From NCBI GenBank assembly GCA_964582645.1, contig CAZOTB010000002.1, forward strand, positions 12,777 through 76,776: DNA of 64,000 nt, in the 5' to 3' direction. Below are positions 9,491-51,794 of this stretch, one piece after another. The first letter of the stretch is position 1, and every line of letters begins with the position of its first letter. The stretch comes from an uncultured Verrucomicrobiota bacterium (lineage in GTDB: Bacteria > Verrucomicrobiota > Verrucomicrobiia > Palsa-1439 > CAZOTB01). Under the pieces are notes generated by a model, which was not told where the DNA came from, did not search any database, and saw only the letters and a list, made by a program, of their open reading frames with translations. A program made the position numbers and the translations under genes.

Positions 9491-10129
9491 ATGAACCAAC
9501 CAAAGATCATGTGGTGCTGCATCCTTGCCGTGGGCGTGGCGCTGACCGGGGCCTGCTCGAAACGAGAGTCTGAGCCGCCAGCGGATTCGAAAACACCGAC
9601 CACATTGGAGAAACCTGCCACACCGCCGAAGACGACCACGACCAAAGCACCTACGAGCATGCCAAAAACGACCCAGTCGGGATCAACCAAGTCCCCGATC
9701 GCGCCACCCAAGACCTCTGCAACACCACAGAAGGCATCGTCCCTCGAAAAGGCCTATCACGAAGCGCCCGATGTACGGCAGAAGACGGACATCGTATACC
9801 GGCTGGGCGATATGGGTTCGCCCGAAGCCATCCTCGCGCTGGGGCGCATCTTCGAGACGGAAGGAGACGCGGAGTTGAAGGAGAACCTTCTCACGGCGCT
9901 CTGGGTGGTGGACGGTTACGACAAGGAGAAGATCCCGATCTACGCGATGGCAGTCCAGGCGAACCAGCCCGAGGAAGTGCGCAAGGAAGCGATTGACGGG
10001 CTGGGCGACCTCGAAGTGGTGGAGGCAATTCCGGTTCTGCAGTCGTTGATAAACGACCCCAACAAGGAAATCAGCGAAGCCGCCAAGGATGCAATCGAGA
10101 CGGTTCGATCGTCCTTAAGCGACAACTGA
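9491..10129 (+). CDS. lipoprotein with HEAT/PBS-lyase-type repeats
   Basis: Signal peptide with a lipobox (LTGAC), a P/T/K-rich linker, and C-terminal HEAT-like repeats. GAGGA Shine-Dalgarno upstream. Confidence 0.6.
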   Translation: MNQPKIMWCCILAVGVALTGACSKRESEPPADSKTPTTLEKPATPPKTTTTKAPTSMPKTTQSGSTKSPIAPPKTSATPQKASSLEKAYHEAPDVRQKTDIVYRLGDMGSPEAILALGRIFETEGDAELKENLLTALWVVDGYDKEKIPIYAMAVQANQPEEVRKEAIDGLGDLEVVEAIPVLQSLINDPNKEISEAAKDAIETVRSSLSDN

Positions 10130-10277
10130 CCCGCCAAAAGACAGCGAGTAGGCCGGAATCGTCTCCGGGCTGCTCGCGCAAATGTCACTCTTCCTGACCG
10201 GTCACGGCAGTTCTGGGGAGAAGCGTCCATGCCTCGCGGCGTCGTCCATCGCCTGGCGTACCGGGGGATTCCATTTC

Positions 10278-10517
10278 TCAGCGCCAGTCGTGTTCGGCGC
10301 GAATGATCCATTGCGGGTGCATGTTGTGGACGGTGAGGAAGGCTTCGAGCAATTCCCGGCTGGGGGCTTCGAACTCGCAGAGCAGTTTCCCTTCGACGGA
10401 GTCGGCGACAAACCGCACGGACGTGACTGTTTCGTCCCGCTTCAACTCCTCCGTGAGCGCGTGCAATTGTTGGCGGGTTAAACACGCAACCGTGTGTAGG
10501 CTGAAATATCGTGGCAT
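10278..10517 (-). CDS. DUF4242 domain protein
   Basis: 79 aa, MPRYFSLHTV...FEAPSRELLEAF, matching the DUF4242 consensus pattern (MPxYLVxHT...FCVFEAPS). ATG at complement 10515-10517. Confidence 0.55.
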   Translation of the reverse strand: MPRYFSLHTVACLTRQQLHALTEELKRDETVTSVRFVADSVEGKLLCEFEAPSRELLEAFLTVHNMHPQWIIRAEHDWR

Positions 10518-10757
10518 ATGCGCTCCGAGACTGGCGGCGTCTTATCTCCTGATTCTCACCGCTGTGCAACGAGAAACTCCATACTTTCAATAGGATTCTC
10601 CACCGTCTGCCGCTGGGTGTTCGTGGCATCGGAAACGCTATTCCAGATGTGAGGATGTGTCGCAGAAATTCGCAGAACGCATGGAGATGGCGTGGCGTTC
10701 TTGGTGGCACAACCGTTGCTAAAACGGCAGGGACACTTTGTGGGAACGGGCGTAGCC

Positions 10758-11681
10758 ATGGAGACAAAAACCCAGGACAACGAGAAATTGCAACTGCTTC
10801 AGACCGTCGAAATGTTTGAAGCGGTCACGCAGGCGAATCCGGACGACTATCAGTCCCTCGAAATCCTCAAGGAAGCCTATGTCAAACTGGGACGCGACGA
10901 CGACAGCCACCGCGTTGCAAAGCAGGTCGCGCTGGCCCATTACAGCCTCGGTCAGTTCGCCAAGGCCATTCAGGAACACGAAGCCATTCTCAAGAAATGG
11001 CCGAATGATTCTGAGAGCAAGAAAGCCCTCAAGGAGCTTCGCGAGCGATCAAAAGACGGCGATGCGGTCACGCAGGCAGCAACGCCCGATGCCATCGAGC
11101 ATCTTCCAACCAACCGTTCTACCGGCAAGGATAGTGAAGAGCTGCTCTGTGATCTGATCGTCAAACGAGCTTCCCGTCTCAAACAGAATTTGGGCGATCC
11201 CGACGGCGACGAAGTGCTGTGCGAACTCATCGTCAAACACAACCTTCTGAAGGAAAAAGACGTCATGGATGTTCTCCATGGCGTGCAGGGCCAAAACGCG
11301 CAGATGAATTCGGACTCGATTCGGGTTCATCTGGTGCAGGGGTTCAGCGACCGCGGGTTGCTGTCGCCGGAACAGTTGCTGGCTTTTATCACGGAGAAAA
11401 CCACGTTGGCGTATATTCCTCTCACGATTTACGACGTGGTGCCCGATATCGTGCGGTTGCTGCCACGCGACATCGCGTTCAGGCACTGCATCATTCCGTT
11501 CGATCGGATCAGCCGCACCCTGTTGATGGCCTCGGCGAATCCATTCGACGAACCCGCCAAAAAAGCCGCGGAGAAGGCGCTCGATTACAACCTGCAATGG
11601 TACGTCTGTAACCCCGCCGAGATCACCCAGGTACTCAAGGACGTGTACCTGATCGGCAAAGCCAGCACGAAAGACGACTAA
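10758..11681 (+). CDS. TPR-like plus GspE_N (T2SSE N-terminal / MshEN-like) domain protein
   Basis: ATG at 10758 (METKTQDN). N-terminal TPR-like helical repeats. C-terminal region (...LCDLIVKRASRL...LCELIVKHNLLKEKDVMDVL...IPFDRISRTLLMASANPFDE...) resembles the N-terminal domain of GspE/PilB/MshE ATPases. Lies 13 nt upstream of the ATPase gene. Confidence 0.6.
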   Translation: METKTQDNEKLQLLQTVEMFEAVTQANPDDYQSLEILKEAYVKLGRDDDSHRVAKQVALAHYSLGQFAKAIQEHEAILKKWPNDSESKKALKELRERSKDGDAVTQAATPDAIEHLPTNRSTGKDSEELLCDLIVKRASRLKQNLGDPDGDEVLCELIVKHNLLKEKDVMDVLHGVQGQNAQMNSDSIRVHLVQGFSDRGLLSPEQLLAFITEKTTLAYIPLTIYDVVPDIVRLLPRDIAFRHCIIPFDRISRTLLMASANPFDEPAKKAAEKALDYNLQWYVCNPAEITQVLKDVYLIGKASTKDD

Positions 11682-11693
11682 TAGACGCTTGTC

Positions 11694-13403
11694 ATGAAAT
11701 CTTTTGGCGAACGCATCGCAGACCTGCTGATCGAAGAGGGATTCCTCCTGGCGGAGCAACTCCAGGAAGCAATCACCATCCAGAAAAAGGAGGGCGGCCG
11801 TCTGCTCAAGATCCTCCAGGAGAAGAAGTACGTCTCCGAAGAGGACATGATGATCAGCATCGGCCGTTGCCTTGGCTGTTCGCCGGTGAATCTCGCGCGC
11901 ATGCGCATCCCGCCCGAGACGCTGCAGATCATCTCGAAAGAGATGGCGAAAAATTACAATCTCGTGCCCGTGGCCAAGATCGGCAACCGTCTGTTCGTGG
12001 CCATGGCCGACCCGATGAACGTCATCGCGCTTGACGATTTGCGTCAGGCGACCGGTCTGAACATCGTGCCGATGATCAGCACCGAAAAGGCGGTGTCGGA
12101 CTGCTTGAACAACATCCATGCTCAGATGAAGGGGAGCATGGAGGAAATTCTCAAAGACACCGACGTGCCCGATCTCGAACTGACCAAGGACAGCCAGGAT
12201 GAGATCAACCTGGACAAGCTTGTCGAGGGATCCGAGGAAGGCCCGGTCATCAAGATCGTCAACCTGCTGCTCGTCCAGGCCATCAAGGACCGGGCGAGCG
12301 ATATCCACATCGAGCCATTCGAGAAGAAAGTCCGACTGCGCTACCGCATTGACGGCGTGTTGTACGACAGCACCGCGCCGCCGAAGTTCATGCAGCACTC
12401 GATTTCGTCGCGCATCAAGATCATGGCCAACCTCGACATTGCGGAACGCCGTCTGCCACAGGACGGTCGCTTCCGCATCAAGATCGCGGGACGCGAGGTG
12501 GATCTCCGTGTTTCCTTGCTGCCGACGGTCCACGGAGAGAAGATCGTCATGCGTGTGCTCGACAAAGGCTGCCTGGCGTCGAGCCTCGAAAGCCTGGGCA
12601 TGGACGAACACACCCTGGGGCGGTTCCGCGATGCGATTGATTCGCCGCACGGCATGTTGCTGGTCACGGGACCGACCGGTAGCGGCAAGACCACCACGCT
12701 TTACTCGGTGCTGCAGGAGCTGAATTCACCCGAGTACAACATCGTCACCGTCGAAGACCCGGTCGAGTATCAGCTCAACGGCATCAACCAGGTCCAGGTC
12801 AAACCCGAGATCGGTCTGACTTTCGCCAGCGGTCTGCGTTCGATTCTGCGCCAGGACCCCGACATCGTGATGGTGGGCGAAATCCGTGACAACGAAACCG
12901 CCGACATCGCGGTCAAGGCGGCCCTCACCGGCCACCAGGTGCTCTCCACGTTGCACACAAACGATGCCGCGGGTGCCATCGCGCGTTTGATTGACATGGG
13001 TATCGAGCCGTTCCTGGTTTCCTCCTCCATCATCATGACGTGTGCGCAACGACTTCTCCGCAAGATTTGTCCGCACTGCAAGGAGCCGGTCGTGGCTCCG
13101 AAGTCGTTGCTCGATCGCCTCAAGCTCAAGATCGAGCCCGGCGAAAAGGTCGAATTCTACCGTGGGCGCGGATGCGATCGCTGCAAAAAGACCGGCTTTC
13201 TCGGACGTGCCGCCATCATCGAAGTGCTGCGTTGCAGCGAAGGCATCCGTCAACTCATCGTCAACGATGGCAAGGCGTTCGAGATCAAGAAACTCGCGCT
13301 CGAGGAGGGTATGAGGACGTTGCGCATGGCCGGGATCCTCAAGGCCCGCGAAGGCATCACCTCACTCGAGGAAGTTTTCCGCGTCACTGCTGCGGATGAA
13401 TGA
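11694..13403 (+). CDS. GspE/PilB-family secretion/pilus-assembly ATPase
   Basis: 569 aa with Walker A GPTGSGKTTT, Asp box, His box, tetracysteine CPHC...CDRC, and an N-terminal GspE_N domain. Confidence 0.9.
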   Translation: MKSFGERIADLLIEEGFLLAEQLQEAITIQKKEGGRLLKILQEKKYVSEEDMMISIGRCLGCSPVNLARMRIPPETLQIISKEMAKNYNLVPVAKIGNRLFVAMADPMNVIALDDLRQATGLNIVPMISTEKAVSDCLNNIHAQMKGSMEEILKDTDVPDLELTKDSQDEINLDKLVEGSEEGPVIKIVNLLLVQAIKDRASDIHIEPFEKKVRLRYRIDGVLYDSTAPPKFMQHSISSRIKIMANLDIAERRLPQDGRFRIKIAGREVDLRVSLLPTVHGEKIVMRVLDKGCLASSLESLGMDEHTLGRFRDAIDSPHGMLLVTGPTGSGKTTTLYSVLQELNSPEYNIVTVEDPVEYQLNGINQVQVKPEIGLTFASGLRSILRQDPDIVMVGEIRDNETADIAVKAALTGHQVLSTLHTNDAAGAIARLIDMGIEPFLVSSSIIMTCAQRLLRKICPHCKEPVVAPKSLLDRLKLKIEPGEKVEFYRGRGCDRCKKTGFLGRAAIIEVLRCSEGIRQLIVNDGKAFEIKKLALEEGMRTLRMAGILKAREGITSLEEVFRVTAADE

Positions 13404-13543
13404 TCGTCCCCGCAGCAGCCTGCGCGGATCCGGTCCCAGTGAATCTCCATTGTGCTGATCCCTCTTGGTGTGCGCGAGCGGCAGCCGCGCTCGTGGCATA
13501 ACGGCTGCTAAAAATACATCATCGAACGCAGAAGCAACTGTCT

Positions 13544-15622
13544 ATGAACCTCTCATTTTTCAGGCGATGGAAGACCCAGCCAGCCGCAGCGTCACCCGCA
13601 GTCACCGAAAAGTCTGCCTGTGCCACGAGTGCCACGGAAACAGCGACCGCCACCTTGGCTGGTGACGCGGACACCACTGTTGAGTGCCTGGAGATGCCGT
13701 GGGAGACGGTGCTGCCGTTGTTGCCGCAGTCCGCGGTGCGCACCACCGGGAACACAGACCTCACCACGCGCGTCCGTCTGCCGCTCAAGCAGATTCTTCC
13801 GCAATTGTCCAAGGGACGGGTTGTTGTTCCACTGAGCGATCTGCTTTCGCAGTTACCCGCGGAACTGCGTACCACGACGGGACCGCACTCGGGCACGGAA
13901 AAGATCTCACTTCCGATCGAACAGGTCGTGGCAAATCTGTCGCCCGAGGCGTTGCAGGCGCGTTCCGACCAGCGCGAGATTGAGATCGAGGAAAGCGAAA
14001 TCCCGGTACCATTCACCGAAGAACCGCGCCACGCCAGTCTGCTGGACGGGGAAGGGCCTCTCGTTCTCGATCCCCCGGCAACACGAACTGCCCAAGTAGC
14101 CGAGCCCGTTCCGCAGGCGCGGCAGGTGGAGCCTCCAACGACAACGGACGCTGCGGAAATGCCATCCATCCGAATTCCTCTGATCGAACCGGCTGCCATC
14201 CGTGATGTTGCGCCGCCGACTCCGACGCCTGCGCAGCCGTCCGCTCAGGGCGGGGAGGCGGTCAAACCATGGATATACCTCACGCTTGCGAGCGTGCTGG
14301 ACAGCATTCCCAACAACGCGCTGGCCGCCGACCGTGAACTGATCCGGTCGCAGGTGGACGGGAGCTACCAGATTCCCGTGCAGGCAGACCAGATCATCGG
14401 TCAGCTCAGCAAAGGTCGTATCGAACTCGACCTCGGCAAGCTGGCGAGCAAATTCCCCGAAGGCGTGCTCATTCCGAACGCGAACGGGCAGATCACGCTC
14501 GGCGTGGACAAAGTGATTGATCAACTCCCCGCGAACGTGTTTTCGCAGGACACAGAAGCCGAGGCACCTGGTCCGACGTTCCAAGACATTCCCGATCCAT
14601 TCCGCGAGACCAACCGGGCGACGCAGCCCGCGACACCGACCGTCAAGGAAACGCCGCCGCCGGCTTGTATCGAAGCACCGCCGGCACCACAAGCAACGGA
14701 AGCGATCGCCGAGCAGGATATTCCGCAGATACTATTTGCGCCCGTGACACCACCTCCCGCTGCAGAGCCGGTCTCCGAGACCACACCGGTGCCCAGCGAA
14801 CCGCGCGTTGAATTGCCATGTCAGACTGTGCCGGTGGTCGGGCCCGTGGCATCTGCGCCGGTCGAGCCGCCTGCGGCCGAATCGCCTGCAGAGCCGGTGG
14901 CCGAGCAAGAACTCGACGATCTGGATTCCATCGAGACGACGACCGAGCCGGTAGCGAGCGCTACGGAGCCGCCCCAACGTCGCGTGTCCGCCGAGGAGAT
15001 TGCCAGGGCGTTGAACGATGTCAACGCGTGGACCGCGGAGGACTTCCATCGCCACACGCTTGGACCGACTTTGAGCCAGCGCATCATCGCCTATCGCACG
15101 CAGCGTGGTGGATTCCAGAGCCTGCGTGAGCTGCTGCAAATCGGCGGCATCGGCCCACGCGTGTTCGAGAAGGTTCTCGGCTTCAGTCCAAGCGCGCTCG
15201 AAGACGAAGCGCATGCAATCAATCGCCTCTTGGGCGTTCCGTGCGACCACGAGATGTCGCTGCAGGAAATCGTCAAGTGCGCGAGCCAGTTGCCGGGCGT
15301 CGAAGGCTGCATCGTGGCGATGGGCGACGGACTCTACATGACGGGCGAGCTGCCCGGACACATGGATTCACAGCGCGTCAGCGCGTTCGCGCCGCAATTG
15401 TTTGGACGCGTGGCGCAGTACGTCCGCGAACTCAACGTCGGCACCGCACGCCGGTTGACGATCTTCACCGACGCCCAGCCGATCACGATTTTCAAGGCGA
15501 ACGATCTGTTCTTCATCGTCATTCACAAGGCCAACCGGTTCTCGAAGGTCTTGTTGAACAAGTGCGAACGGATCAGCCAGGAAATTTCCCGAATTTGCTC
15601 CAAGGAGACTGCGAAAGAATAG
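13544..15622 (+). CDS. large proline/threonine-rich protein with ComEA-type helix-hairpin-helix and C-terminal Roadblock/LC7-like domain
   Basis: 692-aa ORF. Long low-complexity P/T/E/A-rich region with two copies of a QLSKGR(V/I) motif. HhH near aa 480-540 (VNAWTAEDF...LLQIGGIGPRVFEKV). C-terminal approx. 120 aa match the Roadblock pattern (QLPGVEGCIVAMGDGLYMTGELPG...ITIFKANDLFFIVIH). Start choice is uncertain (no clear Shine-Dalgarno). Confidence 0.55.
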   Translation: MNLSFFRRWKTQPAAASPAVTEKSACATSATETATATLAGDADTTVECLEMPWETVLPLLPQSAVRTTGNTDLTTRVRLPLKQILPQLSKGRVVVPLSDLLSQLPAELRTTTGPHSGTEKISLPIEQVVANLSPEALQARSDQREIEIEESEIPVPFTEEPRHASLLDGEGPLVLDPPATRTAQVAEPVPQARQVEPPTTTDAAEMPSIRIPLIEPAAIRDVAPPTPTPAQPSAQGGEAVKPWIYLTLASVLDSIPNNALAADRELIRSQVDGSYQIPVQADQIIGQLSKGRIELDLGKLASKFPEGVLIPNANGQITLGVDKVIDQLPANVFSQDTEAEAPGPTFQDIPDPFRETNRATQPATPTVKETPPPACIEAPPAPQATEAIAEQDIPQILFAPVTPPPAAEPVSETTPVPSEPRVELPCQTVPVVGPVASAPVEPPAAESPAEPVAEQELDDLDSIETTTEPVASATEPPQRRVSAEEIARALNDVNAWTAEDFHRHTLGPTLSQRIIAYRTQRGGFQSLRELLQIGGIGPRVFEKVLGFSPSALEDEAHAINRLLGVPCDHEMSLQEIVKCASQLPGVEGCIVAMGDGLYMTGELPGHMDSQRVSAFAPQLFGRVAQYVRELNVGTARRLTIFTDAQPITIFKANDLFFIVIHKANRFSKVLLNKCERISQEISRICSKETAKE

Positions 15623-15631
15623 AAGGAAGCC

Positions 15632-16288
15632 ATGTCCATCATCAACTACGCCAGCAAGGAAATTCAATTCAAGATCGTCTTCTACGGTCCCGCGCTCTGC
15701 GGCAAGACGACCAACCTCTCGTACATTCACTCCCAGATCAATCCCGACAACCGCGGCGATCTCGTGTCGCTGGCGACGGCGGCGGACCGGACGTTGTTCT
15801 TCGACTTCCTTCCGCTGCACGCGATCACGATCAAGAACTTCAAGACCAAGTTCCAGCTCTACACCGTGCCCGGGCAGGTCATCTACAACACGACGCGCCA
15901 GCTCGTGCTGCGGAGCGTGGACGGCATCGTGTTCGTCGCCGACTCGCAGTGGGACAAGATGGAGGAGAACATCGAGAGCTTCCGCAACCTCGAAGACAAC
16001 CTGGCGAAACAGAACCTGAAAATTGACGATGTGCCGTACGTGTTGCAGTTCAACAAACGCGACCTGCCGCGGATCGCGCCGACGCACTACCTGAATTACC
16101 TGCTCAACAACCGCAAAGTGCGCGTGCCCAGCTTCGAGGCGTGCGCCACCTCCGGCAAGGGCGTGTTCGACACGCTCAACATGATCTCGCGTCTGGTGCT
16201 GCTCAAGTTCACCAAGGAAAGCGACCAGCAATCCGCCGCCGCCGCCAAACGTCCAGCGCCCAAGCCGCTGGCGACCACGCACGTCTGA
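15632..16288 (+). CDS. mglA: Ras-like small GTPase MglA
   Basis: 218 aa. [29 protein letters not shown]... closely matches Myxococcus MglA ([29 protein letters not shown]). Arginine finger DRTLFFDF and VPGQ present. GAAGGA Shine-Dalgarno upstream. Confidence 0.9.
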   Translation: [218 protein letters not shown]

Positions 16289-16318
16289 TCGCACCGCACT
16301 CCAGGAAGCACGCATCAC

Positions 16319-16792
16319 ATGGACGCCATCCCGGTTCTCGGCCTGGAAGAAGTCGCGCAGATTGACGCGGTGCTCAACGAGTACCTCGACAAGTCGGAGG
16401 CCGACCTCGCCGTGGTGCTCGACAAGGGCGGCAACATCATCTCCCAGCAGGGCGAACGCAACACCGCCCATCTGGCGATTGTGGCCGCGTTGGCCGCAGG
16501 ATCGTTTGCCGCAACCAAGGAACTCGCCAGCCGCATCGGCGAGCCGGAGTTCAGCGCGCTGTACCACCAGGGCAAGAATGGGCACGTGTTCATGAACGCC
16601 GTGGACGAGAATACCGTCCTGCTCACGGTGTTCTCCGGCAAGACCACGGTGGGGCTGATTCGGTTCTACTCGGTCAGTTGTGCCCGCAAGCTTCAGCAAA
16701 TCCTCGATCGACTCCGCACCCAGCCGCAACGCAGCCGCTTCACGCTCACCGTCGCCGACATTCAGAAAGCCGGCTCGCTGTTCCAGAGCTGA
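16319..16792 (+). CDS. mglB: MglB, Roadblock/LC7 GTPase-activating protein for MglA
   Basis: 157-aa Roadblock/LC7 protein immediately downstream of mglA. VVLDKGGNIISQQG...VLLTVFSGKTTVGLIRF resembles M. xanthus MglB (VFLVDKNGQLISSAG...VVLVVIFDNRTSLGLVRL). Confidence 0.85.
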   Translation: MDAIPVLGLEEVAQIDAVLNEYLDKSEADLAVVLDKGGNIISQQGERNTAHLAIVAALAAGSFAATKELASRIGEPEFSALYHQGKNGHVFMNAVDENTVLLTVFSGKTTVGLIRFYSVSCARKLQQILDRLRTQPQRSRFTLTVADIQKAGSLFQS

Positions 16793-16889
16793 GTCGCCCG
16801 CGCGGCAGTGAATTCCCTGGAGTCTGCCACGTCGTAAAGGCAGGGCACCTGTGCTGCCATTTGCAAACCCGGCATCTGTTTGCTACAGA

Positions 16890-17693
16890 ATGTCCAATCG
16901 AACCATGACGCTCAGACCTATATTGACCTTACTGGCTGCCGGCATTGGCCTGCAGGCTCCCATCGGATGCGCCGACAACACCAACAGTCCGCCTCCGGCG
17001 AAAGTCGCCGCGGAGCAGCCGGGGACGGCCGCCGCTACAACTACCACCGCGCCTCCTGCGACAGTTGCTGACACGAACCTGCCCACAATGGAAGTCGCCC
17101 AAGCGGTCATGGTGACAGTCGAACTCGATTTCGGGACGAACGTTCCGTCCATTGCCGAAGGACTGCGCGAGGTCGAACGCAAGTATCAGCCCGACGACGG
17201 CAAGGGACGCACGTTCGCCATTCTCGACGCCTACGGCCAACCGACGCCCGATGGGAAGAAACTCCACATGTCCATGCACGTCAGCACCGAGAAGCCGGGG
17301 ATTGGCGAACTGGTCTTCAAGCGCACGGGCGAAGTGTTGTGGAAGAATCGCATCCTCCCCGCGACCAAACCGCCTTCGTCCTCGTTCGCGGGCAAGGGCT
17401 TGACCATCATGGTCGCCGACGACAAGGGCAAGGCGCGTGTGTTGAACGGCACCAAGGTGAAAAACTCGATCTTCGAAGCCACGCTCAACGACAGCGGCGA
17501 ACCGCTCGACGTGTTCTGGCCCGAGGGCGAGGAGCGCGAGGTGACCATGATCTACAGCTCATGCGGTTGTCCCGTGAAAGCGATGGCCCGCCGACAGGGA
17601 GACAAGACCGTCCGCACGAAGGACACGCCCGTAATCTTCCCCGACGACCTCGCCGTGGCCGCCACGATCAACAAGCTGATGGGATGGAAGTAG
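16890..17693 (+). CDS. hypothetical secreted/lipoprotein
   Basis: ATG at 16890 (MSNRTMTLRPILTLLAAGIGLQAPIGC) gives a signal peptide with cysteine. Confidence 0.5.
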   Translation: MSNRTMTLRPILTLLAAGIGLQAPIGCADNTNSPPPAKVAAEQPGTAAATTTTAPPATVADTNLPTMEVAQAVMVTVELDFGTNVPSIAEGLREVERKYQPDDGKGRTFAILDAYGQPTPDGKKLHMSMHVSTEKPGIGELVFKRTGEVLWKNRILPATKPPSSSFAGKGLTIMVADDKGKARVLNGTKVKNSIFEATLNDSGEPLDVFWPEGEEREVTMIYSSCGCPVKAMARRQGDKTVRTKDTPVIFPDDLAVAATINKLMGWK

Positions 17694-17906
17694 GCGGGCT
17701 CACCGTTCCCGGTTCACGGTCCAGGGTTGGCGGTTGTCGGGTTGGCCATGGATGGACACAGATTTTCACGGATACAGAATGCGTTGGTCCGTGTTCCATC
17801 CGTGCCAATCTGTGGCTCCCTTGCTTGACCCGCTGCATCTCGCTCGTTACTGTCACCGCCTCTTTCGTTGGAACTGAATCGCAAGCTGGATCATCAAAGG
17901 AACGAC

Positions 17907-35585: not shown

Positions 35586-36236
35586 TTGCACACTCTCGGC
35601 CAAACAAGGGAAGGCGAATCACATGCGCCGAACGATCACGCGATTGACTGGATCCCGGTTGAGCGCCAGCAGGAAAAAGCACTCCATGGCCTCGTCCGAC
35701 TCGATTGGAAAGGACACCGCTTCTTGATCGCCACTGACTGTGCCTTCAGCGACGACGCCATGGATTCCCTCGCCACCCACGACCTGCGGGCGGAGGTGCT
35801 CGTCGTCCCAGGACGACTCGGACCGTCAGATCGTCCGGCTCAAGCCAGGTACCACGACCTGCTCCGAGCGTTGATCCCCGCCGCAAACCCGGAACTCATC
35901 GTCCTGTGCGACGGTGACCCGTCCCTCTTTTCCGCCACACTCGCGGTTTGCCGGACCGCGTGCCAAGCCCCCGTGCTCTCCACCCGGCTGACGGGTGCCC
36001 TGACCTTCAGCTTGACGCCGGACCGCACACTGGTCATCAGCCCCTATCACCCGAACAGCAAACCCGTTCGGCTCTCGCCGCGCCGGTCACCTCACGACTC
36101 TTTACAACCTTCAGCCCTCGACATTAAACCCCGCCACAGTGCCGATCGCCCTGTAAACAGCCCGTTTCTCGGTCCGGTACTCACGACCCGAAACGCAGCC
36201 TCAGAACAACACGGCGGGACGCATCCAGAGGAATAG
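35586..36236 (+). pseudogene. degenerate ComEC/Rec2-like MBL-fold C-terminal remnant (TTG start in track)
   Basis: The pattern GHRFLIATDCAFSDDAMDSLATHDLRAEVLVVPGRL...ELIVLCDGDPSLF aligns to the end of the ComEC MBL domain (LltGDie..E..L....advLkvpHHGS...aviS.G..N.yghPh). The metal-binding His residues are lost (HHGS -> PGRL) and the N-terminal MBL motifs are absent. Confidence 0.3.
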
Positions 36237-36238
36237 CC

Positions 36239-37075
36239 ATGACATGTAATCATTCAAGTGGAGGTTTCTTCGGAAGAATGAAGGATAAAGTTGTTGGTGG
36301 ATATGAAGGAATTAAGAATAGATTGTTAGGAGATGGTGTATTTGATTTGGAGTATGTTGGACAAGAAAGATCTGGATTACCAGGTATTAATTATGCTGGT
36401 AATAAAGCATTTACGCTGATTGAATTACTTGTTGTTACTGGAATTATTGCTATTTTAGCTGCGATGACTTTGCCTGCTTTGAGTTCTGCTAAAGCTGCCG
36501 GGAAAAGAGCATCATGCATTAATAATTTGAATCAAATTGGAAAAGCCATGACGATGTATGCTGGAGATAATAAAGATTTTCTACCTCCAACTGGGACTCT
36601 CATGAATGATGTAACTTCAGATTGGCAGCTTAGAACTCCTTTAGGCACAAATTTTAATGCGGGCATGGTTATAGCAAATGCAGGCACAACAATCTCGACT
36701 GGAAATATTGCTAGTTATAAATCGTTTGCTTGTCCCGATGCCAGTTATTTTACACTTAAGAAATTAGATGATGATTGGTCAAATCCAAGCGGAGTACCAG
36801 AAAGTTCTTATTTGTATAGAAGTAAAATGCATGGAAGACTTGAAAAGCTTGGTGATCTAAATGGTCAAGAACCAAATAATCTTATTATGACGGACTTTAA
36901 CAAATATTATGGTAGTCCAAATGAGAATCATCGAGGGAAGTTAGTAAACGTTTTATTTGCTGATGGACATGTTGCAACAGCAAATAATATAAGTAATGAA
37001 TTGGGTATTTATGTTCCGGCTCGTTTATCAAATTATTGGAATATTCTCAAGGTAAAATTTCCTGGAGGAATTTAA
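36239..37075 (+). CDS. prepilin-type N-terminal cleavage/methylation domain protein, DUF1559 (H-X9-DG) family, in a low-GC island
   Basis: [45 protein letters not shown] is the PVC-lineage prepilin/DUF1559 N-terminus. [12 protein letters not shown] looks like the H-X9-DG motif. The gene is about 35% GC against a roughly 62% GC background. An unusual 57-aa leader precedes the FTLIE motif. Confidence 0.8.
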
Positions 37076-37324
37076 CTATTTTATAAACTTTTAAATAGAT
37101 TATTTTCTTCGATTACTTATGAGAAAAGGTTGTTTGTTAATGAGAGGGATGTGTTAGTTGTCGTAGCCGCGTGGGGTGAGAGCAGCTTCTCATGCAGAAA
37201 TGTCGGGCTTGGTGCATACCTCCGATCATTGGTGCCATTCGAGTAATTCGTGGCTACAGTCTGCTCCATGACCTCCCCATCACGATCCTTGTGAATCGGC
37301 TTCAATAGGATTAGAGTATGCCCG

Positions 37325-40896: not shown

Positions 40897-42036
<1,140 letters not shown>

Positions 42037-42118
42037 GAATCGAGGCTGCCACCACCGGCTCTTCTTACGCACCTTTTACAAGCTTTGCGTTTGCAGTTTT
42101 CAAAGGAACTGGCACAAT

Positions 42119-44482
42119 ATGCCGCCAAGGATGAGTAAACGACTTTGGATGGACATGGTTCGCCGCTGCCTCGCCGCATTCTTGTGCGTCGTGCTCGTGG
42201 CGCCGGTTTCCGTTCCCGGCCAGGATACGCCCAAGATTGAGGGGCCGACTCTGCGTCCGGCTGCCACCGATCTGCCGCCCGCACCGCCGCCGGCGACCGT
42301 TCCCACCAAGACCGGCATGCGCGTTTCGTCGAACCCCGATGAGAAACCCAGCCTGACCGTCCGCTGGGAAAGCGCGCCGGCCGCGGCTGCATTGCAGAGA
42401 TACTCCGACCTCACCGGGCGCACCGTGATCCAGAACGCCGCGCTCTCGGGCGTGGTTTCACTGGACACCAAGACCATGCTCACCACCAACGAGATGCTCC
42501 TCGCCATCGAGAGCGTGTTGTTCGCCAACGGCATCTCGCTGACACCGATGGGCGACAAGTTTGTGAAAGCCGCCGCCAACCAGGCCATCGCGCGCGAGGG
42601 CATCGCCATTGCCGGGGCGGACGCGGAGTTTCCCGAGGGCGACCGCATCACGGCGACGGTGATCCCGTTGCAGTACCTGGATGTGGGCGACGCGTCCATC
42701 GTGCAAAGCCTGTCGCAGTTCATCCATCAACCCGGAGGCACGATCCTGCCGTTGACGCGCTCGAACAGTCTGCTGATCATTGACACCACGCTCATCGTGA
42801 AACGGTTGCAGGAGATTCTCGAGCGCCTCGATCAGAAGGTCGAGAACCGCATTCAGACTTACTATCGTCCTTTGACCAACGCAGAGGCGTCGAAGGTCGC
42901 CGCGACGATCCAGGCGTTGATCACGGGATCGGCGCCGGCGACAGGGGGCGCTCCCCGACCTCCGCCCCGGCCAGGCCAGCCAGCCACAGTGGCGGCAGGT
43001 CCTACCGAGGAGTCCATCGTAGCCGGCAAGGTCATCATCCAGGCGGACGAGCGCACGAACACGCTCATCATTTTGACCCGACCATCGAACCTCGAATTCC
43101 TCGAAGGCATCATCAGCGCGCTCGATGCGAAGGTCGAACCCGAGATTCGCTTCAAGAAATTCAAGCTCGAACACGCGCGCGCGGAGGATGCCGCCGATAT
43201 CTTGCTGTCGCTGACGGGCAGCGGCAGCCAACCGACGATCCAACGCCGCGCCTCGACCACCCAGCGTGCCGACCGCAACCGGCTCGGACGCACGAGCTAC
43301 GGCTCGAGTGCCCGCGACCGCACACAGACGGGAGCGCAACAGCCGCAGCCGCAGTTGCCGCCCATCGCGCGCCAACCGACCACGCCCACCGGGACCACCG
43401 CGACCCAACCCGGGCAGGGTGTGGAGAGGCCGGATTTCGTGTTGAGCGAACGAGCGCGCGTGATCGCCGATCCCCGGCAAGGCTCGATCCTTGTGTTGGG
43501 CACGGCCAGCGATCTGGAACTGGTCGAGATGATCATCCCGGAAATTGACCTGGCCCTGGCGCAGGTCATGATCGAGTCCATCATCGTCGAGGTCACGCTC
43601 GACAACAACGCCGAGTTCGGCGTGAACATCCTCCAGCGCGAGTGGGAAAAGGGCAGCAACAAGGGCGGCGGCGCCTCCCTGCCATCGGTAGTTGCCACCA
43701 ACGCGCTGCAGAAACTTGCGTTCCTGCGCGACCCGCAACAGTTTGCCGCCTCGGGTCTGGCGGGTCTTGGGGGGCTTACCTATTTTCTCGACCTCGGCGG
43801 CCTCGATCTCGATGTCATCGTGCGCGCCGTGGCGGGTTCGTCCAACTTCAAGGTGCTGCAGCGGCCATTGCTCCAATCGTCGCAGAACGAGCCCGCGCAC
43901 ATCTTCGTGGGCGAGACGCGCCCAATCATCACCGCCACACAAACCAGTTTCACCGGTGACGATGCGCTGCGCTCCACCATCGAACAGTTCGACATCGGTG
44001 TCACCCTTGATGTGACTCCCAACATCACGCCCGGTGGATTGGTGGAACTCGAGGTCGAACAGACCGTCGAGGACGTCTCCGGCGAAGTGCGGGTGGACAA
44101 CAACCTGCAACCGATCGTCTCCCGTCGCGAGTTGACCTCCCTGGTGAGCGTACGGGACCGGGGCGTCGTCGCGCTCGGCGGTCTCATCAAGAACGGCAAG
44201 ACGAAAACGGAGAGCAAGGTGCCGATTCTGGGCGATATCCCCCTCCTCAGCTACGCCTTCAAGCAGACCTCGTGGAAGGATTCCCGTATCGAATTGATTG
44301 TGTTCCTGCGGCCCACCGTGCTGCGCAGCGCCGATGAAGCCATGAAGGAAGCGCAGAAGTTGAGGAACAAATTCAAGGGACTCGACAACATTCCGAAACA
44401 GGACGTGCCGGCTCTGCCTGAAGAACCCGGTCCTCCCGAGAAGAAACCCTGGTACGCGCCGTTGCAGCCGCCGCCGTCCTGA
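42119..44482 (+). CDS. secretin (GspD/PilQ family outer-membrane channel)
   Basis: ATG at 42119 followed by a signal peptide. N-domains and the C-terminal secretin domain (…VVALGGLIKNGKTKTESKVPILGDIPLLSYAFKQTSWKDSRIELIVFLRPTVL). Confidence 0.85.
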   Translation: MPPRMSKRLWMDMVRRCLAAFLCVVLVAPVSVPGQDTPKIEGPTLRPAATDLPPAPPPATVPTKTGMRVSSNPDEKPSLTVRWESAPAAAALQRYSDLTGRTVIQNAALSGVVSLDTKTMLTTNEMLLAIESVLFANGISLTPMGDKFVKAAANQAIAREGIAIAGADAEFPEGDRITATVIPLQYLDVGDASIVQSLSQFIHQPGGTILPLTRSNSLLIIDTTLIVKRLQEILERLDQKVENRIQTYYRPLTNAEASKVAATIQALITGSAPATGGAPRPPPRPGQPATVAAGPTEESIVAGKVIIQADERTNTLIILTRPSNLEFLEGIISALDAKVEPEIRFKKFKLEHARAEDAADILLSLTGSGSQPTIQRRASTTQRADRNRLGRTSYGSSARDRTQTGAQQPQPQLPPIARQPTTPTGTTATQPGQGVERPDFVLSERARVIADPRQGSILVLGTASDLELVEMIIPEIDLALAQVMIESIIVEVTLDNNAEFGVNILQREWEKGSNKGGGASLPSVVATNALQKLAFLRDPQQFAASGLAGLGGLTYFLDLGGLDLDVIVRAVAGSSNFKVLQRPLLQSSQNEPAHIFVGETRPIITATQTSFTGDDALRSTIEQFDIGVTLDVTPNITPGGLVELEVEQTVEDVSGEVRVDNNLQPIVSRRELTSLVSVRDRGVVALGGLIKNGKTKTESKVPILGDIPLLSYAFKQTSWKDSRIELIVFLRPTVLRSADEAMKEAQKLRNKFKGLDNIPKQDVPALPEEPGPPEKKPWYAPLQPPPS

Positions 44483-45154: not shown

Positions 45155-46594
45155 TCAGAGCATGAAGCCGAGATCAGGATGGGCGAAACGGCCGATGTTC
45201 GGGAACACGGTGGCCATGTCCGAGCTGCCGACGCCGAACCATTTCGCGAGTGTCGCCGAGTATTCGTCCACGGAAGTGGTGGGAATCCAACGACCCAAGC
45301 CGGTGTCGTCGGGGCCGTTGACGGTGAGCGCGGGAAGAATTCCGAACGTGCGCCGACCATTGACGCCGCCGCCCACGATGATGTGGTGGCTGCCCCAACC
45401 ATGGTCGCTACCCTGGCCATTGGTCGGGAACGTCCTTCCGAAATCGCTCGCGGTGAACGCCGTGACCTTCGAAGGCAACGCGGCGTCCTCTCCTGCCTGC
45501 GCCGCGAGTTGCTCCATGGCGCGCTGGAAGGCGAAGAGGCTCTGACTCAACTCGCCGATCAGATTCGCGTGGCCGCCGACGGTGGTGTCGTTCGGATTCG
45601 CGGCGTTGCCCACCTGTCCCGTGTGCGTGTCGTAGCCACTGACCGAGACGAAGAAAATCTGCCGCTTCATGTTCATCGCCGAGCGTGCCGCGATGAGGCG
45701 GGCAACCATTTTAAGCTGGTTGCCGAGCGTGGTGTTCGGAAATGGCACGGTCCAGTACGTAGCCGACGCCGTGGGCGCGATCGCGGTGTTCAACACGTCT
45801 GCGGTGTTGATCGAATGGGCAGCGACGGTGGCGTAGGCCTGCTCCTGCATGTTCGGGTAGTTGAGCCCGAGGATGTCCTTTACCGCCTGCAAGCGCGGGC
45901 CCGTCACCCCGGTCAAGGACACCGCGCCCGTCGTGGAGACGGAGTATTGCGACACGATGTTGCCGACCTCGAATGTGTTCGCGCCCGCGAGCGTGACGGT
46001 GAGCGAGATTTTTCCGCCGTTGCTCGTGTTGAGCGTATCGAGCAGGTCGGCGCAACGTCCGCCCCACCCCGTCAGTGGCGGTTGATCGGGGATGGATGTC
46101 TGCCATTGTGTGACCTGGTCGGCGTGGGAAAACAACTGCGGCGGCTTGGCGACGCTCCCTGCCTGGTACTGGGCGCGGGTGATCGGATAGACGAGCGTGC
46201 CGGTGTTGAACAGGACCGCTAGTTTGTTCTCGGCGAAGAGCGTTTGCAGGCCGGTGCAACTGGGATGCAACCCATAGGTGTGCCCGTCATTATTGATCGG
46301 TGTAATCGGGAGCAGGCTGGATTGTGGCAGCGCGAGGTTCTGACGGATGGCCGCGTAGTTTTGGTATTCGGTGTCGCCGGCGGGCACGATCAGGTTGTTC
46401 GAGTCGTTGCCGCCGGCAAGGAAGACGCACACCAGCGCCTTGTAATCGGTGATTGTGCCCTGCGCCATCGCCGCGTTGATGAAACGCAGGTCCCGCAACA
46501 TGCTGGTGACCGCCCACGTGCCGACGGCGGCGCAGGAAGCCTTGCGGAGAAAATCGCGGCGGGTGATGGGCTGGGCGTAACGTTTGCGGCTCAT
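45155..46594 (-). CDS. DUF1501 domain protein (Tat signal, sulfatase-like)
   Basis: Twin-arginine signal TRRDFLRKA and DUF1501 pattern. Immediately downstream of the DUF1800 protein. Confidence 0.85.
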   Translation of the reverse strand: MSRKRYAQPITRRDFLRKASCAAVGTWAVTSMLRDLRFINAAMAQGTITDYKALVCVFLAGGNDSNNLIVPAGDTEYQNYAAIRQNLALPQSSLLPITPINNDGHTYGLHPSCTGLQTLFAENKLAVLFNTGTLVYPITRAQYQAGSVAKPPQLFSHADQVTQWQTSIPDQPPLTGWGGRCADLLDTLNTSNGGKISLTVTLAGANTFEVGNIVSQYSVSTTGAVSLTGVTGPRLQAVKDILGLNYPNMQEQAYATVAAHSINTADVLNTAIAPTASATYWTVPFPNTTLGNQLKMVARLIAARSAMNMKRQIFFVSVSGYDTHTGQVGNAANPNDTTVGGHANLIGELSQSLFAFQRAMEQLAAQAGEDAALPSKVTAFTASDFGRTFPTNGQGSDHGWGSHHIIVGGGVNGRRTFGILPALTVNGPDDTGLGRWIPTTSVDEYSATLAKWFGVGSSDMATVFPNIGRFAHPDLGFML

Positions 46595-46598
46595 AAGA

Positions 46599-49500
46599 TT
46601 ACTTCTGGATGGTGAAGTCCGGCGAGGTGACCATGAGGTGGATGGTGGCGCGAACCCGGTCGCGTTGCTGGCTGGCGGTTGGAGGAGTCGAATACGGGAA
46701 GTTGGTCGAGGTGACGTACGTCACAATCGTGTTGGACGCGCCTGTGGACAACTGACCCGCCAGCAGCAGGGAGTTCAGCGTGCCCACCAGGCTCGGGACG
46801 CCGGTGTTGCTGGTGTAATTGGTGGTCATGTACGGACCAATGTCGAGGACGATCGAGCCGTTGCCGTTCTTAAAGCTGTTCAACCCATTGGTGTTCGATC
46901 CCTGGCTGTTGATGATCGCCCCCGCGAGGAAGTTGTTTTGCAGCGCCACACCGGTGTCGGACGTGAGCTGGAACTCGGGCGTGGTCAATCCCGCCGAGGC
47001 GAGAAGCCCCGGGAACTTGTAGTCGGGGAAGAAGTAGTTGAACACCGTCGGCGACCGCAACGGCGTCTGGGTCAGGTCGAGGTCGGTCACGCCCATGTTC
47101 CACGTGCTCGACTGGACCGTGACGTTGCCCGATCGCACCAGCGGCGGCCCGGCTAGCGGCGCGACCACGTGGCTGTTCTGGTTTTGATTGGCGACCGCGC
47201 CGACGACGATGGTGAAGTGATCCTCATCCACGACCGACGCCACCGCATACTGGCCGTCCGCCGCCGTGCCGGACATGAAATCAATATAGACCTGGTCGCC
47301 CGGGTTCAGCCCGTGGTTGCCGGCCGTGCTGACGGTGATGATGTTTGTGTTCGGCTGCGAGTAGCCGCCCTTGTAGAACGCGAGCAGGCAATTGCCCGAA
47401 AGCGTCGCCGCGTCCGGGGTCGTCACGCTGAAAGCCGAATTCGACGGCACGCTCACCACTTCGTACACGCCGTTGGAGGCGCCGCCCGTGGTGAACGTGA
47501 TGTGCAGCCGGTTGCTGACGGCGAGTCCGTGGCCCGCCGAGTTGATCGAGATGAAGCCCCCGGCCTGGTTGTACGCGCCCGTCAACACGCCCGTCGCGTT
47601 GACCGTGAAAGTGTTCACGCCCGTCACCGTCACCGGGTACGCGGTGCTCGTCGGTACCGGAGTTCCCGAATCAAACTGGAGGAAAATATTGTTGCCCGTG
47701 GCCAGCCGGTGGGCGTTGGTGGTCGTCACCGTGATCGCGCGCCCGCCGTTCTGGCTGTAGGTGCCGCCATTCGGCTGCGGCGACGGGAACGCCCGCGCCA
47801 CGCCCGTCGCGCGCAGTAACGGCTCGCGCTGCTTGCCGAACGTCGAGCGGGTGATCTGCGAACTGCTCCGCGCTTCGTAATCGAGCAGGATTGCCTTGAT
47901 CACCGCCGCCATGTCGCCGCGAACGCCGGCGCCGTTGTCGTGGAACACCTTCACCACCCGGTAGAGATAGTCCCGGCTCGGGTGGCTCGTCACGAGTCGC
48001 TGGATGAGTTGCCGGCAGACGAATGGGCCGACGTTTGGATGGTTAAAGATCGCGTCCAGGCCGGTCTCGAGTTCTTGCAAACCATAGTTGTCGTACTCCG
48101 CGTTTGTGGGGTCGGCCTGGCTTCCCGCCGCAGCGGGCATGACCACGTTGTCGAGGATGCGTTTGGTGCCGAGTTCGTGGCGGGTGGGAACGAGCTTCAT
48201 CGGGTTGATGTAATCGGCAGCCGGGCTCCAGTTCGTCGGCAGCCGTCCATTGCTCTGGTTCGGCTGGTTGTAGTTCCAGCCCGTGAACAGCCGGGAGTAA
48301 CCGATCACGACATTCTGATCGTAGGTCGGCACCAGGTTGTCCTGCGAGTTGAGCACCAGCGTGCCGTCCGGCCACATGCGGTAGAGGCCGACCGAGAAGA
48401 GCTGCAGAATCTCGCGCGCGTAGTTTTCGTTCGGGATGCGTCCTGTGGCGAGGTCGCCCTTCTCGTTGCGGCGCATGTCGAGATACAACCCCATCGCGGG
48501 CGTGAGCGTGACCGCTTCGAGGATTTCGCGGAAGTTGCCGAAGGCGTTGTCGAGCAGCGTGTCGTAGAAGGCGGAGAGGGCGCGTCCGTTGTTGTCGAGT
48601 ACGCCGATCTCGGAGACGACCAGGATCTCGCTCAACGCAAACGCCACTCGCTGGCGCAATTGATCGGGCGCGGTGACAGACTGTTGCCACCACGAGTTGA
48701 AGGTCAGGTTGCGCGGATAGGGCGCGGTCGGATCGGAACTGAGGTTCGCCAGCACGAACGGCAGGTGATGCGACACGGGCCTGGCAAACTGATCGTCAAT
48801 CCACGCTTCGTATCCCATCGCCTGCACGGCCGCGATGTCGCTCTGGCTCGGTCCGAACGTCGCCTGCATGAGGAACCGCGCTGCGGCGTTGGCGTTGGCG
48901 TGGTCGTCCGTCCAGGCAGGCGGATCGGGCGGCGGCGAAAACGTTTGCGAGCCATTGGCGAGCGTGTAGTTGCCGCGAATCTCGCCGGCAGGGTAGTTGA
49001 CGGTGTGGATGTTGATGAAGGCCTTGCCCTGCTTGATGACCTCGAGGACGTCCGCCGCCGAGAGCGTTCCTACGGCTGCGATGGGCCAGATGTAACTGCC
49101 GTCCGCCTCCGGCGTGGCATCATCAATGTCGAAGATGATCTGGCTCGGGTGGTTCAGGTACGGGTCGGAGTGGATGTGGGCTGCCGTGTATGGGGAAGTG
49201 AGATTGGTGTAGGCGAACGAGAAGGTCGCCTGGGATTCATCGGCGCTCAGTCGCAACGTGGACGTGCCGATGCCCTGCGATTGGGCGGCACCCTGGGCGA
49301 GCATGGTGGTCGCGTAAAGCGTACCGGGGATGGAACTCGGCGGCGGTTCGACGTACGGCGACAACACGAACCCGGGCACGACCTCGCTCGGTCCCGTGCC
49401 GGCCTGGTCGGGACGCAGCCATCCCACGGCGACATTGTCGTTCGTGCCCGTGCCGGCCTTGTGCAGGACCTCGATGTAGTAGCGCTGCCCGGCCACCAGC

Positions 49501-51428: not shown

Positions 51429-51794
51429 GTTCGAGTGAATCGGGTTGTCGTCGGAACGCGCCGTTTGTGTTCTGAACACCGGCCGCGCCATTTGGTTGCG
51501 GACAAGAGCGGCAAAGCGTCCGAGGTGCCACGCTCTGCTGAACCGCCATTCGGCAAGGATATCCGCGATCAACACACACCCTCCCCCGCGCGTTCAGGAC
51601 AAATCATCGTCGTGCCTGTGAAAACGGCTGCATCGTAGGGGAAAAAAGCGCGTCTTGTCAACGCGCCAGCGCCCTGCCCTTTTCGATTTCCATTCCACCT
51701 GCGGCGGATACGATACTGCCGTGTCTCGACACGCCCTGATCGGGGACCGGATCTGGGATGGGCACCCTGCCGGACGCTCGAACAGCTTGCGTCT

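Follow-up and report, generated by a model that had tools for sequence, protein, structure and literature searches.

In Myxococcus xanthus, the polarity GTPase MglA recruits the tetratricopeptide repeat (TPR) protein SgmX, and SgmX brings the motor ATPase PilB to the pole "by an unknown mechanism" (PMC11580455). Another component of this system, MglC, is a paralogue of MglB and an adaptor that binds MglB and RomR; it is not itself a GTPase-activating protein (GAP) (PMC4719450). PATAN proteins have been linked to MglA/MglB gene neighborhoods (PMC4316618), and a preprint reportedly connects PATAN with the motor of type IV pili in Synechocystis (bioRxiv 10.1101/2021.06.11.447907). The MglA of Verrucomicrobia belongs to group 5, and such groups have variable gene neighborhoods, sometimes with PATAN genes (Wuichet & Sogaard-Andersen, PMC4316618). 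Here we describe a 692-amino-acid (aa) protein that is encoded beside mglA, mglB, and a pilB-like gene in an uncultured Verrucomicrobiota bacterium. Its gene lies at 13544..15622 (+ strand) of the 64,000-nucleotide (nt) stretch that we analyzed (the window; contig CAZOTB010000002.1 of assembly GCA_964582645.1, positions 12,777 to 76,776). From N to C terminus, the protein comprises a short basic-aromatic peptide, a module, a linker, a second copy of the module, another linker, a helix-hairpin-helix (HhH) domain, and a Roadblock domain.

We propose that this protein works in the cytoplasm, probably close to the membrane, as a scaffold for an MglA/MglB polarity module devoted to a motor of the type IV pilus type (PilB/GspE family). 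We give this proposal a probability of about 0.6. The protein more likely helps to position pili than to take up DNA. Accessory Roadblock and scaffold proteins are already known from MglA/MglB systems; this scaffold family, its module, and the compact operon are new. In the literature that we searched, we found no description of the family, of a fusion of HhH and Roadblock domains, of the module, or of an MglA-PilB operon in bacteria of the Planctomycetes-Verrucomicrobia-Chlamydiae (PVC) group. Even for Myxococcus, the way in which the MglA/MglB switch is physically coupled to the motor for pilus extension has yet to be explained. This locus encodes the motor ATPase, a TPR protein with an MshEN domain, the GTPase, its GAP, and the scaffold together, so the link could be tested with five proteins.

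A conserved five-gene cluster

The gene for the 692-aa protein is the third of five co-oriented genes. It starts 140 nt past the gene for a hexameric ATPase of the PilB/GspE family (11694..13403, + strand; Pfam T2SSE, E = 5e-142), which has an N-terminal MshEN domain of the c-di-GMP-binding type (E = 4e-17) and also matches the MshE-related c-di-GMP motif (40.3 bits versus a cutoff of 38). Just 9 nt past its stop codon is mglA, for a Ras-like polarity GTPase (15632..16288, + strand). The product is similar to MglA from M. xanthus (6h17; phmmer E = 3.1e-67) and from Thermus thermophilus (E = 3e-66) and contains the motifs TVPGQ and DRTLFFDF. The last gene, mglB (16319..16792, + strand), encodes a 157-aa Roadblock-type GAP of MglA (Pfam Robl_LC7, E = 6.6e-13). 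This protein is similar to M. xanthus MglB (6h5b_B, E = 6.2e-16) and matches the NCBIfam model for MglB with E = 3.8e-18 and 66.1 bits, which is under the 200-bit cutoff. On the strength of these similarities, the GTPase is a true MglA and the small Roadblock protein is MglB. An initial annotation, made from the DNA letters alone, had placed the HhH protein next to pilus-polarity genes, and this holds: MglA and MglB follow, and the PilB/GspE-type ATPase is directly upstream.

The first gene of the cluster encodes a protein with TPRs and a C-terminal MshEN domain (10692..11681, + strand; Pfam MshEN at aa 240–319, E = 2.4e-11; matches to TPR_19 and TPR_14 are below threshold). In about 30 loci, a gene for a similar protein (33–44% identity) is directly 5' of pilB. 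Because the alignments of these homologs begin at aa ~23–29, the ATG at 10758 (METKTQ...) is probably where the gene truly begins, and not the listed GTG at 10692. The MshEN domain of the TPR protein resembles the N terminus of PilB, a resemblance suggesting that the TPR protein might assemble together with the ATPase or might bind c-di-GMP.

In a scan of genome collections, we found 33 related loci, all from metagenome-assembled genomes, and all but one of them labeled as Verrucomicrobiota/Verrucomicrobiia. We compared 40 loci in all, and about 30 Verrucomicrobiota genomes share the five-gene order. Wherever there was enough flanking sequence (several contigs end early), the same five genes are present in the same order, and the ATPases from most orthologous loci are 65–70% identical to the one in the window. 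Among the loci whose flanking genes were listed, the genes outside the cluster differ. The HEAT gene and the gene for a 280-aa protein that neighbor the cluster in the window had no tblastn match in the related loci, 40 for the latter gene. The conserved unit is the cluster rather than the wider neighborhood. The 280-aa open reading frame (ORF), which lies right after mglB (16851-17693, + strand) and outside the conserved cluster, has no match in Pfam or NCBIfam.

When we scanned positions 10100-17900 for promoters and terminators, the sites were no more numerous than in shuffled controls, so our view of the operon's structure is based on gene spacing and conservation only. The 140-nt gap between pilB and the next gene (13404-13543) contains a GC-rich inverted repeat (CGAGCG-gcagccg-CGCTCG, at about nt 13475-13493) that is not followed by a run of T. 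Within the operon, this repeat could act in the stability or the processing of the RNA.

The initial annotation named two findings that would speak against its account of the 692-aa protein: no match to HhH or Roadblock domains, or an ORF that is really two genes. We checked both. The matches to both domains are significant, and the frame from 13544 to 15622 is uninterrupted. A split into two genes can be rejected, as the ORF is continuous and the identical architecture is found in more than 30 orthologous loci.

The start of the gene also needed attention. The initial annotation noticed that there is no clear ribosome-binding site at 13544 and suggested that the N terminus might be misplaced. 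We agree on the first point, since we found no Shine-Dalgarno-like sequence upstream. But the N terminus does not seem to be misplaced. No other start codon lies between the preceding stop and 13544, and the 10 codons from there (13544..13573, + strand) encode the basic-aromatic peptide MNLSFFRRWK. In most orthologs, a peptide with the consensus M-x-[LFW]-x-F-F-[RK] is at the extreme start (for instance, MRLPFFRSSK, MKWPFFKSSK, or MKLPFFKSSK). Remote relatives begin with related basic-aromatic peptides (MAFSFSNWFKGK, MGFLDWFKSK, or MALFSFGKK). This conservation supports the start at 13544. The JGI record of the identical protein (P0001, 642 aa) begins at Met51; we rejected this start, as the conserved peptide lies upstream of it.

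The peptide is a candidate for binding the membrane or for docking to a partner. It is reminiscent of the PilM-binding peptide of PilN, but the spacing does not match.

The 692-aa protein seems to be cytoplasmic. Its N terminus reads MNLSFFRRWKTQPAAASPAVTEK. We found no transmembrane (TM) or hydrophobic segment anywhere in the protein (Kyte-Doolittle hydropathy, 19-residue window, threshold of 1.6), and we saw no signal peptide. We also considered that it might be a lipoprotein or otherwise exported, and rejected this because the N-terminal region is not hydrophobic. The SAC at aa 24–26 has a lysine at the -3 position of a lipobox and lies in a poorly conserved stretch of our homolog alignment (A1).

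The HhH and Roadblock domains

The initial annotation recognized a ComEA-type HhH domain, and this was confirmed: the domain (15017..15184, + strand) matches Pfam HHH_3 (PF12836) at aa 492–547 with E = 7.8e-11 and 42.4 bits (gathering cutoff of 27), the quoted peptide is where it was said to be, and the solved DNA-binding domain of ComEA (8dfk) aligns to it with E = 9.4e-7. The C-terminal Roadblock/LC7 domain (aa ~556–688; 15209..15607, + strand) is joined tightly to the HhH domain via a conserved NRLLGV. Across the family, the spacer between these two domains is always short (median 8 aa). The Roadblock domain matches Pfam Robl_LC7 (PF03259) at aa 577–660 with E = 3.8e-6 and 27 bits (gathering cutoff of 23), and it aligns to the solved Roadblock protein 7f8f (E = 1.4e-4). 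So the claim that a single 692-aa ORF carries both domains is supported by significant Pfam matches as well as by the continuous frame.

We modeled aa 480–692 with AlphaFold2, using an alignment of 56 sequences. The mean predicted local distance difference test (pLDDT) is 95.5, with over 90 for the HhH domain, and the predicted template modeling score is 0.79. In the model, the HhH domain has five helices, and the elements of the Roadblock domain after it are in the order expected for this fold (alpha-beta-beta-alpha-beta-beta-beta-alpha). When we compared the Roadblock part to known structures using Foldseek, it matched Roadblock proteins from Asgard archaea (TM scores of 0.83–0.85), LAMTOR2/p14, dynein LC7, and MglB from M. 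xanthus (6hjm and 6h5b_B).

Is the HhH domain a sign of pilus-dependent DNA uptake, as the initial annotation had suggested? The protein could be a ComEA-like receptor for DNA in competence. The similarity to HHH_3 and ComEA is genuine, a gene for a pilus-type ATPase adjoins, and some records for homologs say "competence protein ComEA". (Other homologs are named "helix-hairpin-helix domain-containing protein" or "predicted regulator of Ras-like GTPase activity".) However, ComEA acts outside the cytoplasm, where it is exported or membrane-anchored (PMC9747964, PMC3879209), while the 692-aa protein has neither a signal peptide nor a TM segment, bears a fused Roadblock domain, and shares its operon with the cytoplasmic MglA and MglB. 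Only the HhH part matches the NCBIfam model for comE (TIGR01259), with 35 bits instead of the required 152.35. And we found no ComEC-, DprA-, or ComF-type Pfam domains in the 40 ORFs that we scanned, of 54 called in the window.

Key lysines that ComEA uses to bind DNA are also missing. We aligned 75 HhH domains from the family to two solved ComEA domains and took the roles of the residues from PMC9747964. Losing either K164 or K199 of Bacillus subtilis ComEA reduces transformation by over 100-fold, and K164 (K63 in Vibrio cholerae) is the best-conserved lysine of ComEA and the most important for transformation (PMC9747964). At the position of K164 (Gs K166), the 692-aa protein has leucine; across the family, leucine is present in 44 of 75 domains, arginine in 15, and lysine in none. 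At the position of K199, it again has leucine; its relatives have T, A, L, or V, and none of the 75 have a basic residue. At the position of the less critical K193, 53 of 75 have lysine or arginine. Hairpin 2 of the 692-aa protein is canonical (GGIGP), and the GIG is retained in 73 of 75 relatives. Hairpin 1 retains GxG in 63 of 75 relatives, but in the 692-aa protein it is degenerate (HTLGP: T-L-G, with one residue deleted), as it is throughout its clade. The net charge of the HhH domain is 0, versus a family median of +3.

Furthermore, the HhH domain is missing from relatives that retain the same gene cluster. Given the lack of a signal or TM segment, the fusion to a Roadblock domain and the linkage to mglA and mglB, the replaced lysines, the degenerate hairpin, and the HhH-less relatives, a ComEA-like role in uptake is very improbable. 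What remains in common with ComEA is the double helix-hairpin-helix of the HHH_3 type, of about 60 aa; the 692-aa protein differs in its lack of an export signal and of the equivalents of K164/K63 and K199, and in its fusion to a cytoplasmic-type domain. The annotation of family members as "competence protein ComEA" is probably misleading.

The HhH domain may still have weak non-specific affinity for DNA in the cytoplasm, or it may be a surface for contacting proteins, which was the alternative offered by the initial annotation. If it does bind chromosomal double-stranded DNA non-specifically, then the protein could be a tether that places the polarity module or the motor relative to the nucleoid. 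The HhH fold is intact, in a high-confidence model; both hairpins and a basic residue at the K193 position are retained in most of the family, whose median charge is positive; and HhH domains contact DNA chiefly via backbone amides (PMC9747964). On the other hand, the equivalents of K164 and K199 are replaced family-wide, the 692-aa protein itself has the degenerate hairpin and an uncharged domain, and relatives with the same gene cluster dispense with the HhH. We consider a role as a nucleoid tether to be quite unlikely.

The initial annotation described the C terminus as a Roadblock domain of the MglB/MglC type. That it is a Roadblock domain is supported by Pfam, by the AlphaFold2 model, and by Foldseek; that it belongs to the MglB/MglC type could not be demonstrated by sequence. 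A profile comparison of the Roadblock domain to the MglB family was not significant (hhalign E = 0.043 over 23 columns), and the NCBIfam model for MglB does not match the protein at E ≤ 0.01. No entry for MglC was among the matches of the 692-aa protein to sequences in the PDB, or among its top 50 fold matches.

The main alternative to our proposal is that the 692-aa protein regulates the catalytic activity of MglA directly, through a Roadblock domain that pairs with MglB or replaces one of its protomers and acts as a co-GAP, an anti-GAP, or an exchange factor for guanine nucleotides (GEF). The rest of the protein would merely localize this activity, and the arrangement could be compared to RomY or to systems with one MglA and two MglB. 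A single mglA is flanked here by genes for two proteins with Roadblock domains, and a subset of systems does couple two genes of the MglB family to one mglA (Wuichet & Sogaard-Andersen, PMC4316618). Roadblock heterodimers form GTPase platforms in Ragulator, which is present among the fold matches. Also, S[AV]FAPQLF in helix alpha2, Y626, E629, and L630 are invariant in 10 diverse homologs, which suggests a conserved surface for interaction.

However, a canonical MglB is already present, and the profile similarity to MglB is not significant. In addition, MglB contacts MglA with a hydrophobic patch of small residues on alpha2 (A68/A72 in T. thermophilus, which correspond to A64/G68 in M. xanthus; PMC3199381). 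In the non-significant alignment to MglB, this patch corresponds to either G621/Q625 or R622/Y626 of the 692-aa protein, depending on the register. Although the register is ambiguous, either choice would put at least one bulky or charged residue at the patch in the wider family ([RK]622/Y626 or 621/[QR]625), which would resemble the binding-defective A64R/G68R mutant of MglB (PMC3199381). A catalytic role seems unlikely to us.

The repeated module and its family

The initial annotation saw most of the N-terminal part of the protein as a Pro/Thr/Glu-rich, low-complexity linker of over 400 aa with a QLSKGR motif that occurs twice. The motif does occur twice, at aa 79–94 and 283–298 (nt ~13778 and ~14389), where it had been placed. 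But the region is not one long linker: it contains two conserved modules that are predicted to be folded and are separated by Pro-rich linkers. Module 1 (aa 48–165; 13685..14038, + strand) is an undescribed alpha/beta domain with four beta-alpha units and holds LPQLSKGRV. Module 2 (aa 243–360; 14270..14623, + strand) is a second copy and holds IGQLSKGRI. When we compared the profiles of the two regions using hhalign, they aligned over 111 columns (probability of 99.35%, E = 6.1e-21), so by sequence comparison the duplication is far beyond chance. Both modules are conserved across orthologs. Linker 1 (aa 166–242; 14039..14269, + strand) is rich in Pro, Ala, and Thr (21% P and 16% A) and is poorly conserved, varying in both length and sequence in our homolog alignment. 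Linker 2 (aa 361–485; 14624..14998, + strand) is rich in Pro, Ala, and Glu (22% P, 15% A, and 14% E).

Each module is built from four short strand-helix units with the pattern φxφxLxxφφxxLPxxφ, and units 2 and 3 bear LPQLxxGRVxφxL. At the C-terminal end, there is an acidic stretch and then [IV]PxPF: IPVPF in module 1 (aa 153–157; nt 14000-14014, + strand) and IPDPF in module 2 (aa 349–353; nt 14588-14602, + strand). I349, P350, P352, and F353 of module 2 are invariant in our alignment of homologs. Across the family, a strict [IVLF]PxPF follows 93 of 336 modules, versus 0.9% in shuffled controls. The [DE]IPxPF form resembles the C-terminal peptide of FtsZ (DIPAFLR), but the spacing does not match. 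Across the family, the module and the HhH domain are separated by spacers of 36 to 395 aa (median of 126).

We found no match for the module in Pfam (including PF14332, PatA_N), among sequences in the PDB, or among folds in the PDB. Yet it is widespread. When we searched exhaustively with HMMER, using a module profile, we found 1,340 representatives of clusters at 50% identity with E ≤ 1e-3, and 402 with E ≤ 1e-10. (An earlier, word-indexed homolog search with the module alignment gave just one protein and is superseded by the HMMER search.) So the module is a common domain with neither a Pfam model nor a structural neighbor.

We examined the architectures of 169 proteins. In 66, the module or modules are followed by both HhH and Roadblock domains; in 35, they are followed by a Roadblock domain without the HhH; and 102 have both module(s) and Roadblock in all. 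About 35 paralogs begin with four TM segments in place of the N-terminal peptide and continue with 2–8 modules. The tails of these four-TM paralogs have weak hhalign matches to the Roadblock domain (E = 0.002 and 0.011, with probabilities of 13% and 4%). In Pfam, the proteins of the family match only HhH families, Robl_LC7, and, in single cases, the receiver domain, LAMTOR5, and T2SSK. Named members of the family are from Lentisphaeria and Methylomirabilota. We define a "module + Roadblock" family as proteins with at least one module (...LPQLxxGRV...LP...IPxPF) and then a C-terminal Roadblock domain that are encoded beside mglA-mglB and/or pilB. The 692-aa protein, with its two modules and its Roadblock domain, belongs to this family.

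Other members also have telling neighbors. An HhH-less member (L044) is in an identical five-gene cluster, with MglA and PilB that are 80% and 64% identical, respectively, to those in the window. Members with one module (L005-L007) precede mglA-mglB and adjoin genes for a PatA_N-FHA protein and a Flp pilin. A member from Lentisphaeria has as its neighbors a PatA_N gene and an mglA-mglB pair that is transcribed divergently, and another remote member precedes mglA-mglB and is beside a PilC-type gene. Two of the four-TM members are grouped with genes for an ExeA-like ATPase and a TPR-MshEN protein and with pilB; one of these loci (L045) also has pilC and pilS/pilR.

Finally, one four-TM member is encoded in a locus (L046; GCA_009772835.1, WNGF01000143.1, 243-13631) with a receiver protein, CheW, a methyl-accepting chemotaxis protein (MCP), a hybrid CheA, a response regulator (RR) with PatA_N, an RR with a Roadblock domain, MglA, and MglB; a Roadblock gene and a TPR gene follow mglB on the opposite strand. 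This looks like an apparently complete Frz-like pathway from chemosensing to polarity in a single locus.

Proposed role and comparison with known systems

We propose that the scaffold works as follows. The N-terminal peptide, or the four-TM anchor in the paralogs, would hold the protein at the inner membrane. The modules and the [IV]PxPF that trails them, on flexible Pro-rich linkers, would bind PilB, the TPR-MshEN protein, or the platform. The Roadblock domain would dimerize or dock on the MglB/MglA pair, as MglC does in Myxococcus. The model of aa 480–692 suggests that the HhH and Roadblock domains form a rigid unit, of which the HhH would be an accessory part, present in roughly half of the relatives that we examined. 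Through the contacts of the scaffold, the nucleotide state of MglA would then control where or when the extension motor engages.

Several points weigh against this proposal. What we observed are the architecture, a cytoplasmic-type composition, the gene linkage, and the alternation between peptide and four-TM N termini; the interactions and the mechanism go beyond domain content and neighborhood. The docking of the Roadblock domain on MglB/MglA is proposed by analogy only, because the domain is not significantly related in sequence to MglB proteins. The model of the module has a pLDDT of just 76.7 and no structural neighbor, so it gives no clue about function. The N-terminal peptide has Pro or Ser and is too short for a clear amphipathic helix. 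One member of the family, a fusion of the module to a receiver domain (L043), has no mglA, mglB, or pilB nearby. And the ATPase scores above the NCBIfam cutoff for GspE (650.2 bits versus 630.25) and just under the cutoff for PilB (664.9 bits versus 675.65), so the motor could be a type II secretion ATPase. We favor a pilus because relatives of the scaffold adjoin pilC and pilS/pilR (L045) or a Flp pilin gene (L005-L007), and because of the precedent of MglA.

A broader and doubtful, though possible, extension is that the module is a new fold and that "module + Roadblock" proteins are a general and unrecognized component of MglA/MglB systems in PVC bacteria and in other largely uncultured phyla (Lentisphaeria and Methylomirabilota). 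Anchored by a peptide or by four TM segments, they would physically link the switch, and in some lineages also Che/PATAN signaling, to PilB. In the clade with the HhH domain, they would also contact cytoplasmic DNA, as a reference to the nucleoid.

Elsewhere in the window, about 26 kb downstream of the cluster, there is a gene for an 855-aa secretin (41915-44482, + strand; three stretches of Secretin_N and a match to Pfam Secretin at E = 1.4e-40), which might form the channel through the outer membrane for the same pilus or secretion system. A low-GC island (36200-37200; GC content of 0.30–0.41, versus ~0.61 for the window) includes an ORF for a 278-aa protein (36239-37075, + strand) with a prepilin-type N terminus and a C-terminal LFADGHV. 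By eye, we take this to be a DUF1559-type pseudopilin-like protein of a kind typical of PVC bacteria; it may have been acquired horizontally. A gene on the - strand (45155-51575) encodes a 1,658-aa protein with DUF1800, PA14, CHRD, Calx-beta, and dockerin domains and adjoins a gene for a DUF1501 protein. The pairing of DUF1800 and DUF1501 genes is typical of Planctomycetes and Verrucomicrobia, and it fits the taxonomic assignment of the window. The window has no match in Rfam and no tRNA.

How does the proposed scaffold compare to known components of polarity systems? Like MglB, it has a Roadblock/LC7 fold and is encoded adjacent to mglA, but its locus has a separate, canonical mglB, and it is not matched by the MglB profile. 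Like M. xanthus MglC (MXAN_5770), it would be a Roadblock-fold protein that works with MglA and MglB, and by analogy we propose that its C terminus is an adaptor. It differs in its length of 692 aa (the Roadblock chains among its fold matches in the PDB have about 80–133 residues), its two novel modules, its long Pro-rich linkers, and its HhH domain. With PATAN proteins it shares genomic company, as PatA_N genes flank its remote relatives, but its modules are not matched by PF14332.

The M. xanthus proteins that connect MglA to polar PilB (RomR/RomX, SgmX, FrzS, and SopA) are a parallel in function. The proposed scaffold, too, has linkers that are long, Pro-rich, and probably disordered. However, we detected no homology, and the 692-aa protein lacks a receiver domain, TPRs, or a coiled coil. 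Furthermore, its presumed partners are encoded with it in one compact cluster along with pilB, and the TPR protein of this cluster bears a PilB-like MshEN domain. In function, we suggest by analogy, the scaffold would correspond to the M. xanthus network of RomR/MglC and SgmX/SopA, which is dispersed; here the parts are unrelated and are encoded alongside the motor.

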